Positions 46,792-53,114 of a stretch of DNA of 53,890 nucleotides are shown in pieces (the first letter of the stretch is position 1; each line of letters opens with the position of its first letter). The stretch comes from a virus. The DNA is taken from the UHGV virus genome UHGV-0213406. One strand, given 5' to 3'. The notes under the pieces were generated by a model. The model searched no databases. It was not told the origin of the DNA and saw nothing but the letters and a program-made list of their open reading frames with translations. The translations under genes and the position numbers were made by a program.

Positions 46792-46805
46792 TGTTTCCCC
46801 TTTCT

Positions 46806-46867
46806 GGTCTGCCATCTTCAGCACCGGGAGACCGTCCCACGGTGGACGCCCTTTCGGGCGTTTCGGC
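46806..46867 (-). ncRNA. Type II hammerhead ribozyme
   Basis: GCC-GAAA-CGCCC(GAAA)GGGCG-UC-CACCG(loop)CGGUG-CUGAAGA-UGGC; loop-I GGUCU pairs with 3' AGACC. Confidence 0.9.
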
Positions 46868-47232
46868 TAAAACTTGTCGGCGTATTCTTCCAACACTTCC
46901 GCTATACACTGCGAAAGTATATAGCAACGGATTGTAACGTCCATCCACTCCCAGTCCTCGGCTAGAAAGTGCGTTCCTATATCTGCGGAGTCAATGCCGA
47001 ATTCCTCAACTGCTTCTTCCAATAAGTCCATGTTATCAAGAACATATAAGGAAGCCTGTACACGGTTGAAAGTGTACGAGCCGGAAGCGTTCCCGGTTAC
47101 GCTGTCCTCTGTCCAGAGAGTATCATTTAAATACTGCTCAAGCTCTTCCAAGTCTTCAAACTCGGAAAAATTAACTTCTTCGTTAATATAGTTTTCGATG
47201 TCCTCTTTTACTGTCTCATAATAGTTATACAT
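46867..47232 (-). CDS. Highly acidic small protein (Ocr-like DNA mimic candidate)
   Basis: 121 aa, 31 Asp/Glu versus 4 Lys/Arg (hand count); DSVTGNASGSY motif. Confidence 0.7.
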   Translation of the reverse strand: MYNYYETVKEDIENYINEEVNFSEFEDLEELEQYLNDTLWTEDSVTGNASGSYTFNRVQASLYVLDNMDLLEEAVEEFGIDSADIGTHFLAEDWEWMDVTIRCYILSQCIAEVLEEYADKF

Positions 47233-48483: not shown

Positions 48484-49098
48484 ATGGCAAGAAAGAGAGC
48501 GACTACAATAGTAGAAGACTTGCGACCGGTAGACATGGACAGCTTGCAGAGCGTCGTAGACGATGAAATATCTTTATATGCTGCCGACCTTGGCATTGAT
48601 GAAAAGGATATAGATGCGAGACAATGGAATGATGTATTAGACACGATCCAGCGTCACTTGTTCGGGAAAAGAAAGAAGCTGTTAAAAGTAGACGGCGGTC
48701 AATATGGACAGTATGACGGTAACAAGGTTATGGAAGCATACCGTATATATAAACGAATATGCAATAGGCACAGCAAGACTATAAGCTTAACAGGCTTTGA
48801 ATACTTTACTGGCATAGAACACCAGACGCTTTACAACTGGGATACTGATTGCAGTTATAAACGTGATGACTTGACGGGGCTAAATGGCGCGCCCTTAGAT
48901 TTTCGCAAAGTTATTATGAGAGACAACGAAGAGAGTCTACAAGCGCTATTAGAATCCGGGAGAGGAAACCCAGTCGGAACGCTGGCAAGGCTTAACCGCT
49001 ATCATAACTGGAACGTGCCTGGCATACGGAACGACCAAGAAGAGAGAAAAGCGCTCCCGGCATCGGCTTTACCGCGTTTAGATGGGGAAAAAGATTGA
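48484..49098 (+). CDS. terS: Probable terminase small subunit
   Basis: Y..IC....K..S..GF..FTGI...TLY.W HTH-like region and NPVG.LA.LN....W; upstream of terL. Confidence 0.6.
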   Translation: MARKRATTIVEDLRPVDMDSLQSVVDDEISLYAADLGIDEKDIDARQWNDVLDTIQRHLFGKRKKLLKVDGGQYGQYDGNKVMEAYRIYKRICNRHSKTISLTGFEYFTGIEHQTLYNWDTDCSYKRDDLTGLNGAPLDFRKVIMRDNEESLQALLESGRGNPVGTLARLNRYHNWNVPGIRNDQEERKALPASALPRLDGEKD

Positions 49099-49516: not shown

Positions 49517-49732
49517 ATGAGAGTAATCAACCAGAGGAGAGATAGATCAATCAATATAGATAGATATGACATCAGCGTAGACGATAACCATGTATACGCC
49601 ATAGGTAGTGGTGGGCGAACGGTGCTTCTTGGCGACTATGAGGACAGTGAAAAAGCAAGGGGAGCATTTGACAGTCTCATGAAAGCTTATGACACGAAGT
49701 TTGTAACAACATATCAGATGCCGACGCAGTAG
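49517..49732 (+). CDS. Hypothetical protein
   Basis: MRVI.Q....SI, LG.Y...EKA..A...L...Y, Y.MP. Confidence 0.65.
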   Translation: MRVINQRRDRSINIDRYDISVDDNHVYAIGSGGRTVLLGDYEDSEKARGAFDSLMKAYDTKFVTTYQMPTQ

Positions 49733-49765
49733 GTTCATTTTCAATGGATCTCCTTTCATTATATT

Positions 49766-49815
49766 GCCTGCTAGTGGAACGCTGAATAAAGGGAGTGTCA
49801 AAACTCCCGGCAGGC
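49766..49815 (+). ncRNA. tRNA top-half mimic (acceptor + T arm)
   Basis: 7-bp GCCTGCT/GGCAGGC stacked on 5-bp GGGAG/CTCCC. Confidence 0.5.
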
Positions 49816-49945
49816 TTTGGGTGTTGTAGCCCTCCTTAATTATTCGTAAGTTGTGAAACTCAAGCCTTTTAAGACCGTATAGCCGGAGACAGTATAGGTG
49901 TCACAACCTGTACTGTCAATCGTTGAAAATGTACATAAGTAAACG

Positions 49946-50058
49946 ACCGATAGCATAGTGTGAGTATGGTTCGATTCCATAGCTAGGTGCGGGAGGATTC
50001 CTCCTGGTGGTTCAATTCCACTGCTAGGCGTGAGTGCGGTGCAAGTCCGCATGTCGGT
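49946..50058 (+). ncRNA. tRNA-like RNA with three tandem T-arm hairpins
   Basis: 7-bp ACCGATA/TGTCGGT enclosing TATGG-TTCGATT-CCATA, GGTGG-TTCAATT-CCACT and TGCGG-TGCAAGT-CCGCA. Confidence 0.6.
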
Positions 50059-50116
50059 TTCGAGTTTGCGTGGTACTCTTCCGGTACTTATCTGCCTTTC
50101 ACCGGCAAACCACGTA

Positions 50117-50203
50117 ACCGTCTTAAGATAGGAGCCACAGAGTTTATTTTTGCTTTCTTTTCTTTTTCCTCTGCGGTGGTCGGTGCAAGTCCGACAGACG
50201 GTT
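50117..50203 (+). ncRNA. tRNA-like RNA with 26-nt U-rich loop in place of the anticodon
   Basis: ACCGTCT/AGACGGT acceptor, GTCGG-TGCAAGT-CCGAC T arm, CCACAGAG/CTCTGCGG stem. Confidence 0.6.
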
Positions 50204-50728
50204 TTGCAAATAGGATGAACTCAGTGAAGAAAGGTTTTTCAGCCTTGCTGAGATGCATAGCATACTAGGAAGTACAGGTGGGGATACCTGCCTGTAGGAC
50301 TGACTGAGTGCCTTTGAGGGCATGATGGTGTATGGGAACCATGCACGGACGCTGTGTAGTGTATCCTCATAGAGGAATCAATAGCAGAACCCTTGTGGTC
50401 GGCGAATAATAGACGCTTGCGGTGCAAGAATAATCCGCTTGGACGTGGTGTGAGAGACTACGGGAAGAGCGGAAAACTCAAAAGAAGCCGATATGCCTTG
50501 AAATAATCGCAAGAGGTTTGTGAGAGTAGCGGAACGGCAAAAAAAGGATGTTTTGCAAAAACAAAAAATCTGAAAGAACCGTGAAATCTACAGGTATCAG
50601 TCCTGTGCGTGCTTATGACAGCGGTAAGAAGCCAAGGGTCGCACCCGAACGCTCAGACTTATCGTCACGCTGGCAGAAAATGATCCCTACCTTGAGGGAT
50701 AAGGGGAAACCCTCATTCAAATTTGCAA
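50204..50728 (+). ncRNA. Large structured ncRNA, probably ROOL family
   Basis: ~525 nt, hairpin-rich; terminal helix TTGCAAATAGGATGA/TCATTCAAATTTGCAA; 3' GGTCGCACCC...GCTCAGAC...TGGCAGAA resembles ROOL as recalled; phage and tRNA-like context. Confidence 0.62.
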
Positions 50729-50874
50729 TTTTTCTTTGGATCATGCCACGGAGTCCAAAACGTAACAAAAAACAAAGCAATTACATGCATCTTTTGCAAA
50801 ATATAGGTTTTTTAATCTTCTATGTACAATTCCAATCAACATTATTCGTGGCTATGCGGTCATGCGACCGCTTA

Positions 50875-50961
50875 CGGAACATAGTTTAAAGTAAAATGCC
50901 CTGCCAAAAAAAATAAAGCTGTCTTAAAAGGGCGATGCCGGCTCATAACCGGCTGTTCCGA
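50875..50961 (+). ncRNA. tRNA-like RNA with 26-nt A-rich loop in place of the anticodon
   Basis: CGGAACA/TGTTCCG acceptor, TAGTTTAAAGTAAAA D-arm remnant, GCCCT/AGGGC stem, GCCGG-CTCATAA-CCGGC T arm. Confidence 0.65.
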
Positions 50962-50979
50962 TTTATGGAGGTATGATAC

Positions 50980-51177
50980 ATGAGAAAGATATTCTATACG
51001 CTTGTGATAGCAATGCTTACGATATTGTTCTGCATGCTTGGTTTTGCGTTTGTAGCGGTGCTTGTGAAGTTGATATGCTGGTGCTTTGGTCTGGTTTTTA
51101 ATATAAAAGTAGCACTTGGTATTTATGCGGTGATTGTACTGATTCGGTGGGTGATGCCAGATGGAAAGAATGATTAG
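50980..51177 (+). CDS. Small membrane protein
   Basis: Two hydrophobic helices; RBS GGAGG. Confidence 0.65.
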   Translation: MRKIFYTLVIAMLTILFCMLGFAFVAVLVKLICWCFGLVFNIKVALGIYAVIVLIRWVMPDGKND

Positions 51178-51304
51178 TGAGAGAATTATCAAAGAATCGG
51201 TCAATATGGCAAAACTAATCACAAAAGGCTACACTGTGACAATCAGACCGACAAGAGGTGGCGTTAAGATTACAAGCCACAAAGAGAAAGAAATAAAGAG
51301 CTGA
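51170..51304 (+). CDS. Hypothetical protein (44 aa)
   Basis: Overlaps previous stop; KG..V.IR....GVKI pattern; translated by hand. Confidence 0.5.
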   Translation: MISERIIKESVNMAKLITKGYTVTIRPTRGGVKITSHKEKEIKS

Positions 51305-51368
51305 GAACCGAGTGCGGTTCCGGGACAGGGGAGTGCCTCTTAACTTTTTTAGTTAGGGGGCTTTTTTT

Positions 51369-53114
51369 ATGGCAAGCAAATATCTGATGGATGCTGTAAA
51401 AGGATATGATGCGTATCTTTTGAAGCATGGACTTGATGAATCTGTGCTACAAGCCTACGTTCTCGCTACACAGACTGCCTATAAGGATGAGAAAGACATA
51501 CAGTACGGGAAAATGGTAGCTGCGAAAGCAAAACAGCTTGTAAACGACATGATACGGGTGCAGACAGGCGGTACATTCGCACAGCTTGAAGAATTTGCGC
51601 AAGAGAACAAGACAGATTATAAGATTCTCGATACTTACTATGACATCTTAAAGATTGAAGCAAGAGATATCCTTGACAGCTATATGCTGTATGTGGAGAA
51701 GGATAGAAAGCGACGGGAACGCTTCTATGAGCCACGTAGAAAGACATTAAAGCTTGTTACGGACAGACTACAAGCACTTGAAGATGATGAATTGGACGAA
51801 CTATTTGTGCATTTGCCCGCAAGAACAGGAAAATCACAGGAGCTTACACTTGCTACATCATGGAAGTGCGCAAGGAATACCGAAGCAAGTAACCTGTATG
51901 TGACCTATAAAGAGGGACTGGGCGGTGCTTTCCTTGATGGTGTTATGGAAATATGGACAGACCCCATCTATTGTTTCTCTGATGTGTTTCCTGAAGCAAT
52001 CATTGTAGACACGGATGCAAAAAACAATAAGGTGGACTTGCAACGAAAGAAAAAATATAAGTCCCTGTCCGGTAAAGGTCTAACTTCTGGTCTGAATGGT
52101 GAGTATGATGCTTTGGGATGGCTTATCATTGACGATATCCTTGAGGGAATCCAGGACGTGTTAAGCCCGGATGTATTAAGAAGAAAGCAGATCATCTTCG
52201 ACAATAACGTCATGAAGCGTAAAAAAGAGAAGTGTAAAGTTGTCTATAACGGTACAATCTGGAGTCTGCACGATATCTATATGAACAGGCTTGACTTTCT
52301 GGAGAACAACCCGGAAGCAAAGGACATCCGATGGGACGTGCTTAAGATACCGGCTCTTGACCCTGTGACGGATGAAAGCAACTTCAATTATGAATACGGA
52401 GTAGGATTCTCCACAGAGTATTACAGGAGAGAGCGTGCAAAGTTCGAAGAAAATGACGACATGGCAGGATGGTATGCACAGTGCCAGCAAGAACCAATCG
52501 AGAGAGATGGTGCGGTGTTCAACCCGGAACACATGAAATTCTATAACGGAGTACTTCCGACCGAAGAACCATATAGAATCACTGCCGCCTGTGATGTGGC
52601 TCTTGGTGGAGAGGATAATCTGGCATTTGCCGTAGCTTATATGTATGAGGACGGTTCGGTATATATTGATGATGTCGTGTTTGATAGCTCAGAGAAGAAA
52701 ATCACCAAACCAAAAGTCACGGATATGATTATCGACCACGATGTAGGCAGTGCGTTTTTCGAAGCGAACCAAGGTGGAGAGGGCTATAAGGATGAAGTAG
52801 ACGAAATGCTCAGAGAAAAGGGTAAGAAAATCAACCTTGTATCACAGTATGCACCAACCAGTATGAGAAAATCACAAAGAATATGGGACAAAGCTGGAAC
52901 AATCAGAGAATGGTATTTTCGTGATGTAGGCTGTAGAAGCAGGGAATACCGTGCATTTATGCGAAACCTGTATTCGTTCACGATCAAAGGCAAGAATAAG
53001 CATGAAGATGCGGCTGACTGCCTTGCATCATTAGCTTATTTCATTGAGGGAACATGGGAACCGGCAAAAGTAGAAGCCGTAAGTAATCCATTCAGAGGGG
53101 GCAGAAGATGGTAG
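51369..53114 (+). CDS. terL: Terminase large subunit
   Basis: P.RTGKS Walker A, LIIDD Walker B, GT.W, ACDVA.GG.D and H.DA.D nuclease motifs. Confidence 0.93.
   Translation: MASKYLMDAVKGYDAYLLKHGLDESVLQAYVLATQTAYKDEKDIQYGKMVAAKAKQLVNDMIRVQTGGTFAQLEEFAQENKTDYKILDTYYDILKIEARDILDSYMLYVEKDRKRRERFYEPRRKTLKLVTDRLQALEDDELDELFVHLPARTGKSQELTLATSWKCARNTEASNLYVTYKEGLGGAFLDGVMEIWTDPIYCFSDVFPEAIIVDTDAKNNKVDLQRKKKYKSLSGKGLTSGLNGEYDALGWLIIDDILEGIQDVLSPDVLRRKQIIFDNNVMKRKKEKCKVVYNGTIWSLHDIYMNRLDFLENNPEAKDIRWDVLKIPALDPVTDESNFNYEYGVGFSTEYYRRERAKFEENDDMAGWYAQCQQEPIERDGAVFNPEHMKFYNGVLPTEEPYRITAACDVALGGEDNLAFAVAYMYEDGSVYIDDVVFDSSEKKITKPKVTDMIIDHDVGSAFFEANQGGEGYKDEVDEMLREKGKKINLVSQYAPTSMRKSQRIWDKAGTIREWYFRDVGCRSREYRAFMRNLYSFTIKGKNKHEDAADCLASLAYFIEGTWEPAKVEAVSNPFRGGRRW

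Follow-up and report, generated by a model that had tools for sequence, protein, structure and literature searches.

A putative three-elbow, tRNA-like RNA with predicted crossed docking from a temperate phage's non-coding island

We analysed a stretch of 53,890 nucleotides from the viral genome UHGV-0213406 (hereafter the window), which we read as the DNA of a temperate tailed phage with genes for a portal, major capsid protein, repressor, serine integrase and terminase large subunit. A non-coding island separates a 204-residue open reading frame of no assigned family (48484–49098) from the terminase gene (starting at 51369), and within this island lies the subject of the present work, a putative RNA built around three structures resembling the elbow of tRNA. 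About 11 kb separate it from the integrase gene, and a ROOL RNA begins 140 bases downstream. ARAGORN calls no tRNA genes in the window, and a promoter scan returned 10 sites against 5.4 expected, among them a 9-of-12 site at 49738–49765 that was given no weight. The features of the island and its downstream landmark are as follows.

49766–49816, plus strand: a further tRNA-top-like element that lacks a canonical T-loop; shared by several terminase relatives
49920–49945, plus strand: loosely conserved purine-rich 5′ leader; a TGAAA-type word lies 12–30 bases upstream in 23 of 36 family sequences
49946–50058, plus strand: whole three-elbow RNA, 113 bases; the discriminator is 50059 and CCA is not encoded
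49946–49952, plus strand: acceptor-like stem, 5′ strand; two-sided changes in 7 of 7 pairs, 100% of alignment cells paired
49953–49961, plus strand: mini D-arm D1; its loop has A at 49957 (equivalent to position 18) followed by G at 49958; docking with T3 predicted
49965–49981, plus strand: T-arm T1; loop 49970–49976, U55; predicted docking site of D3, with predicted base-to-base stacking on T2
49982–49990, plus strand: mini D-arm D2; GG at 49986–49987; docking with T2 predicted by elimination; the least conserved arm
49992–50004, plus strand: variable hairpin in the anticodon-arm position; 13 bases, 3-nucleotide loop; pairing probability 0.90–0.93
50006–50022, plus strand: T-arm T2; loop 50011–50017, U55
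50023–50031, plus strand: mini D-arm D3; GG at 50027–50028; predicted to dock with T1
50035–50051, plus strand: T-arm T3; loop 50040–50046, G55; runs into the 3′ strand of the acceptor
50052–50058, plus strand: acceptor-like stem, 3′ strand; pairs with 49946–49952, with two-sided changes
50117–50202, plus strand: D-armless tRNA-like neighbour; 7-bp acceptor, G55 T-arm with its loop at 50184, AG in the connector
50196–50733, plus strand: neighbouring ROOL RNA (RF03087), 272 bits, E = 3e-61
51369–53114, plus strand: terminase large subunit gene (phrog_38, E = 3.5e-45), landmark downstream of the island

Several of these neighbours deserve a word of their own. The element at 50117–50202, which ARAGORN does not call, carries a long pyrimidine-rich loop on the arm in the anticodon position, and its 3′ end abuts the first helix of ROOL. 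Counterparts of the 49766–49816 element are found in L129 (2827–2869) and in L137 (about 1803–1852), where the counterpart directly abuts ROOL. The conserved leader, with its TGAAA-type word and purine run, may resemble the boxA or processing-stalk word of Firmicutes rRNA operons; the base immediately before the acceptor (−1) is U in 29/36 family sequences and G in the window. Elsewhere in the window a type II hammerhead ribozyme (46803–46868, minus strand, 55 bits) overlaps the end of a 124-residue minus-strand open reading frame. A theta- or HDV-like ribozyme at 50064–50115, proposed by eye, had no Rfam support and was discarded.

The element is closed by a 7-bp stem that pairs 49946–49952 with 50052–50058 and encloses three 5-bp T-arms, whose 7-nucleotide T-type loops start at 49970, 50011 and 50040, just where the initial annotation had placed them. 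Five T-arms of this type occur on the two strands of the window, four of them within 49970–50190; in 200 dinucleotide shuffles the count was 0.29 ± 0.55 (maximum 2) and two T-arms never fell within 100 bases of one another (0/200). The T-arm cluster of the element is not due to chance. Its folding energy is ordinary (z = −0.88, with 37/200 shuffles equally good). Ensemble pairing probabilities are 0.46–0.99 for the closing stem and 0.57–0.93 for the T-stems; the mini D-stems, computed without tertiary contacts, reach just 0.02–0.06, and the three-elbow structure model lies 6.4 kcal/mol above the minimum-energy fold. T3 and the acceptor form a continuous 12-bp acceptor/T helix (7 + 5 bp) with two-sided changes, which are also seen in 4/5 pairs of the T1 stem. 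Model R1 scores 49946–50058 at 107 bits, as it must by construction. The initial annotation had described three copies of a short repeat, each leading directly into a T-arm: units 2 and 3 follow the repeat pattern exactly and unit 1 is one base shorter, and the direct succession breaks down at unit 2, where the hairpin at 49992–50004 intervenes. The connectors themselves read as mini D-arms with a stem of 2–3 bp and a 5-nucleotide loop.

Relatives were collected with patterns that fixed T-loop letters and left the stems free, and a parser filter then required at least 6 of the 7 acceptor pairs. One scan produced 44 viral matches (39 full trimers, four without the 5′ third and one two-unit form), and a second produced 31 metagenome matches (26 trimers, one two-unit form and four unrelated sequences). 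A strict three-T-loop scan returned 108 loci, three of which are members (L081, L086 and L097); the others were rejected as tandem repeats, as tRNAs followed by T-loop-rich RNAs or as a separate two-elbow family. The family set holds 36 distinct sequences of 113–143 bases, forming 13 clusters at 90% identity, with a lowest pairwise identity of 44%. All 36 share the helix order acceptor, D1, T1, D2, variable hairpin, T2, D3, T3, acceptor, each D being a mini-hairpin of 2–4 bp with AG or GG in its loop. In the family alignment (A1), 95.6% of cells are paired, against 80.0% after shuffling and 29–52% for slid partners, and 22 of 31 pairs show two-sided changes, a level reached in 0/500 shuffles in a test that is inflated by relatedness. 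RNAalifold recovers the same helices from the alignment unaided. No family sequence departs from C56 or A58 in any of the three T-loops, or from G19 in D3, and the variable hairpin is long and often internally looped in the relatives, giving a T1–T2 stretch of 24–54 bases. The alignment argues that the three-elbow element is a real, conserved RNA family, bearing out the multi-elbow architecture across 13 lineages. The initial annotation had named fused, decayed tRNA genes without conserved architecture as the finding that would undo it, and the architecture in the alignment is conserved; the variation in unit number that it proposed looking for does occur, as one-, two- and three-unit forms.

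Some features are confined to parts of the family or lie beside it. In four lineages (L383, L381, L397 and L413) the variable arm shares an inner hairpin flanked by purine-rich internal loops, absent from the window, which is possibly a protein-binding motif. In L081 and L097, a long tRNA-Leu-like element with an AG D-loop and a G55 T-loop lies 30–130 bases upstream of the trimer and receives no default ARAGORN call; elements with similarly long arms occur among the matches of another pattern scan.

Trimers are placed within tRNA arrays or close an array off, and several of the metagenome records that bear family members are labelled as human gut. Every record searched (22/22) has one strong copy. 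By eye, the trimer lies 1.1–5.3 kb upstream of the terminase gene and on the same strand in 20/20 records with both, the terminases being 31–39% identical to that of the window. Among 80 closer terminase relatives one has a trimer, namely the near-identical L109 (up to 5 kb upstream was examined, less on short contigs). Because of this scarcity, and because four contigs lack the 5′ third and two carry a two-unit deletion form, the element appears to be dispensable and patchy. The T2–D3–T3 pattern has no match in GTDB genomes, and the trimer is absent from the cultured phages of the INPHARED set. Neither the 22 carrier records searched nor the 60 window ORFs scanned yielded a Ro60/TROVE protein, and no partner gene for the trimer was seen in carrier records or in the window. 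In G003 and G007 the terminase match falls in pieces inside a single open frame of 928–946 residues, which suggests an intein.

A one-elbow relative of the trimer appears, from pattern searches, to be widespread. These elements of 43–47 bases comprise an outer stem, a mini D-arm with the D1 motif and a single T-arm; many lie between phage genes, some twice per contig, one abuts ROOL (in L230), and cultured Mycobacterium and Gordonia phages carry them, examples being Phantastic, Rockstar, VanLee and Morgana. The monomer pattern finds 23 loci in GTDB genomes, seven of them with stems, in several phyla, and Rfam matched 0/20 one-elbow loci. In a set of 58 distinct monomers, one stem lengthens as the other shortens, and their sum is 11–13 bp in 57, given a filter floor of 10 bp and a sample in which related monomers are not independent. 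L540/L541, L547/L548, L267/L268 and L511 have recurring mini-tRNAs in the gaps between small phage genes, and a stop codon is often no more than 10 bases away. An unannotated two-elbow family of about 85 bases was also seen, with the order acceptor, D, T, hairpin, D, T, acceptor and a compensatory acceptor change; it occurs in L001 (1490–1573, minus strand), L006, L071, L094, L102 and Streptococcus agalactiae prophages such as Javan5, and in L001 it lies downstream of GOLLD and tRNA-Ser. Separately, L022, L014, L037, L084 and L015 have a T-loop-rich structured stretch right after a tRNA, which is common in large phages. This stretch has no match to GOLLD or any other Rfam family at E up to 0.01 and may be either a 5′ domain of GOLLD-like type or a large RNA absent from the catalogues.

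The elbow of tRNA is held by a G18–U55 bond and a G19–C56 pair (described in PMC7470943 and PMC10424219), and the corresponding letters were compared across the relatives. With the D-loop A fixed and position 55 left free, 103 matches comprised 47 monomers (45 with G55, two with U55), 17 multi-unit elements and 39 others (10 G, 29 U). With the D-loop G fixed there were at least 122 matches; among the matches listed, all 44 monomers had U55 and none had G55, and the 78 others divided into 72 U and 6 G. These counts give a monomer rule in which an A in the D-loop is accompanied by G55 in the T-loop, and a G in the D-loop by U55. The A-type monomers represent about ten unrelated lineages, one of them heavily resampled, and the pairing of A with G55 is the informative half of the rule because U55 is the default state.

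In the trimers, the A of D1 is accompanied by G55 in T3 in 36/36 sequences (both letters being largely fixed by the search patterns), while D3 and T1 co-vary, with 29 sequences having G with U55 and seven having A with G55. The seven form a single clade (support 82/80) whose sister, L448, has G with U55, and the D3–T1 coupling is therefore one event; a second, independent change (L441) was considered and not upheld by the tree. A crossed docking scheme is predicted on this basis, with D1 on T3, D3 on T1 and, by elimination, D2 on T2. This scheme fits 36/36 trimers, whereas docking in order, as expected of the simple tandem units envisaged in the initial annotation, fits only 7/36 (the A/G55 rows) and is not supported. 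Geometry would lead to the same inner pairs: the monomer D-arm appears to leave the nick in the stacked helices on the strand leading into the T-arm, and if T1 and T2 are stacked base to base then this nick rule would direct D2 to T2 and D3 to T1.

Contigs from RNA runs also cover parts of the locus. In run X1, one contig spans 48402–50432; its depth is flat and equals that of other contigs over the terminase gene, making the signal indistinguishable from DNA. Of six further runs none covers the element, and five have contigs on parts of ROOL only, starting at 50219 and 50223 (one study) and 50233 (a second study). These starts hint weakly at a ROOL RNA that accumulates on its own and have no bearing on the three-elbow element.

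The initial annotation had not recognised a described family, and Rfam searches of the window and of the relatives are likewise negative for the element. Over 49600–51400, with E allowed to rise to 10, no Rfam model matches it, and the best tRNA-clan score is 16.7 bits against a threshold of 47. Where tRNA has an anticodon arm with a 7-nucleotide loop, the element has a 3-nucleotide loop and its relatives a variable arm. The Rfam Y RNA models give no match at E up to 10 in the same interval or at gathering scores in 10 trimer loci, neither ARAGORN nor Rfam calls a tmRNA with a tag reading frame in the window, and the RF03087 model covers 50196–50733 only, with the three-elbow element outside it. 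By these comparisons the element would fall outside the tRNA, Y RNA, tmRNA and ROOL classes; identities as an attachment-site scar, ROOL subunit, Y RNA or tmRNA were weighed and rejected. It does share two attributes of a t-element, namely a T-arm on an acceptor-like stem of RNase P length and a position at an RNA boundary.

The three-elbow RNA cannot decode, and aminoacylation seems unlikely because the discriminator (A in 22/36, U in 14/36) and every acceptor pair vary. The reading we favour, quite possible but held tentatively, is that host RNase P and RNase Z cut the element out of the island's long transcript, an excision that would determine the termini of the RNAs on either side and free a stable, rigid product locked by its inner elbows. 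The outer unit (acceptor, T3 and D1) would serve as a mini-tRNA cut signal: its helix of 7 + 5 bp has the length that RNase P measures, and substrates that have no D or anticodon domain are cut by that enzyme, as described in PMC4797305. No family sequence encodes CCA (0/36) or has a C right after the discriminator (0/36), and a C at that position is described as suppressing RNase Z (PMC7479834); across the 13 lineages, such ends hint weakly at suitability for RNase Z. In place of the anticodon arm there would be a two-fold symmetric module, with T1 and T2 stacked base to base, D2 on T2 and D3 on T1. Its elbows would stay uncut because they have no free acceptor end, and would likely lock the fold while exposing two extra elbow faces. 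As to the neighbouring RNAs, Rfam int-alpA RNA begins 4 bases past the trimer stem in three lineages, tRNA-Glu begins about 7 bases past it in another, and a tRNA-like piece directly precedes ROOL in 5/6 ROOL loci read by eye. The 45-base monomer occupies the same kind of slot, however, so cutting alone leaves three elbows unexplained, and the retention of the inner pair points to some role beyond cutting.

That role might be exercised in trans, in line with the sponge idea of the initial annotation, the released RNA acting as a multivalent decoy whose uncuttable inner elbows titrate a host elbow reader; this reader might be RNase P or RNase Z, a modification enzyme, the L1 stalk of the ribosome or a defence protein. 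We consider this unlikely, even though each of the three elbows is preserved whole and the intervening arm is free to vary, a pattern that indicates selection on the elbows, and even though a monomer would suffice for cutting and an accessory gene would show just such a patchy presence. The invariant C56 and A58 of the three loops and G19 of D3 would suit a binding role, but the same letters are required for folding and so do not imply binding. The known tRNA-cutting defence nucleases mostly cleave anticodon loops, which are absent from the element. Titrating RNase P would seem self-defeating since the carrier phages' own tRNAs depend on host RNase P and RNase Z, and no partner gene is seen. 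T-box leaders, for their part, are described as requiring anticodon–specifier pairing (PMC10424219), and the arm in that position here is variable and has no fixed 7-nucleotide loop. A related idea, which we rate as somewhat unlikely, is a trivalent elbow RNA built from the 45-base module, in which one cuttable elbow and a symmetric uncuttable pair about one helical turn apart would act in trans through avidity for a host elbow reader, be it a processing enzyme, the ribosome or a defence sensor.

Alternatively, the element might never be cut, and its knot of T-loops and receptors might remain in the transcript to block exonucleases and shield the adjoining RNA. T-loops with an intercalated base are described as bolting together many non-tRNA folds, including nuclease-resistant viral RNA (PMC12248019), and structured RNA lies close behind the element in most lineages, as judged partly from hairpin folds taken without a control. 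Such a barrier would have no need of a tRNA-like outer geometry of 7 + 5 bp or of a free 3′ discriminator, both of which are kept, and we regard it as improbable. Proximity to ROOL, 140 bases away in the same kind of island, raises the idea of a scaffold, in which elbow stacking faces would build RNA-only multimers or dock onto a ROOL cage; ROOL and GOLLD are reported to form cages and to lie near tRNA islands (PMC12286853). We think this quite improbable, with ROOL present in only 1/25 trimer records searched plus L448, and in 0/15 of those in that search at ≥90% completeness, and with no conserved self-complementary loop noticed in A1. Finally, functionless fused fragments of decaying tRNAs, or integration scars, might be suspected where real and degenerate tRNA genes surround the element, where truncated and deleted forms exist and where relaxed ARAGORN settings give inconsistent tRNA calls on pieces of it. 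This explanation is hardly credible: the helix order is constant in 13 lineages, every long helix has compensatory changes, there are no remnants of an anticodon arm and the integrase gene is far off, so that decay already appears largely refuted by the family alignment.

Excision by tRNA-trimming enzymes would give a testable handle on how the ends of ROOL and other island RNAs are formed, and the one-elbow relative in cultured mycobacteriophages makes the idea of a cut signal testable in a laboratory host. The three-elbow RNA is small, so that its synthesis, probing and structure determination would be easy, and the exchange of A18–G55 for G18–U55 offers compensatory mutants at once. Known tRNA mimics have one elbow, and a crossed three-elbow RNA of 113–143 bases would add a new fold to those found in nature; its existence would also mean that the tRNA islands of phages contain non-decoding RNAs overlooked by standard annotation. 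The trivalent, in-trans reading, if true, would add a new class to the RNA regulators that phages encode, the element being part of a modular series with one, two or three elbows. A literature search, with most subscription journals outside its reach, found no description of a three-elbow RNA, and the text files searched from the candidate RNA catalogues of Fremin 2021 and 2023 had no match to the motif. An unnamed earlier listing in such catalogues is possible, above all in the one based on IMG/VR. Apparently, then, the three-elbow form is an undescribed variant of the tRNA-like RNAs of phages.

Comparison with known systems places the element among, and apart from, several structured RNAs. 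ROOL (RF03087), GOLLD (RF02032) and the trimer are all RNAs of phage tRNA islands, and ROOL adjoins the trimer in the window, although the trimer is about a fifth of the size of ROOL and most of its carriers have no ROOL. RNA C and RNA D of phage T4 are stable non-decoding RNAs of 120–140 bases from a phage tRNA cluster, matured by tRNA enzymes; to our knowledge no multi-elbow fold has been ascribed to them, and the likeness to the trimer is one of description only. The FMN riboswitch has two T-loop/receptor domains in pseudo two-fold symmetry, which the predicted inner module of the trimer would resemble. Unlike that riboswitch, the trimer has no Rfam match and no visible ligand junction or expression platform, and it sits in a tRNA array, not in a 5′ leader.

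Closer parallels are found among RNAs that pass through the tRNA-processing machinery. Like canonical tRNA (RF00005) and the model substrates of RNase P described in PMC4797305, the trimer sets a 7-bp acceptor on a 5-bp T-arm and would use the 18–55 and 19–56 contacts, and its CCA-less end is like those of other phage tRNAs in these islands. Unlike tRNA, it has no anticodon loop, a D-arm of 2–3 bp, an outer elbow of the A18–G55 type and two inserted elbows. YrlA, a Y RNA of bacteria and phages, is described as mimicking the D arm, T arm and acceptor stem of tRNA without an anticodon, and a YrlA-type RNA of M. smegmatis with a 7-bp acceptor as being cut by RNase P (PMC4201824; Chen et al. 2014). 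Its order of T before D resembles the predicted T1–D3 pair of the trimer. YrlA has, however, one elbow, a Ro60-binding stem and an adjoining Ro60 gene in that account, whereas carriers of the trimer have no TROVE protein and the trimer no Rfam match. Plant mitochondrial t-elements are tRNA-like structures that RNase P and RNase Z cut, thereby setting the ends of the RNAs alongside (PMC1920247; Forner et al. 2007). As described in PMC1920247, they too are non-decoding and bear a T-arm, and the released piece can be stable; they are, however, organellar and have one T-arm without repeated mini D-arms, whereas the phage RNA has three elbows and its cleavage is predicted.
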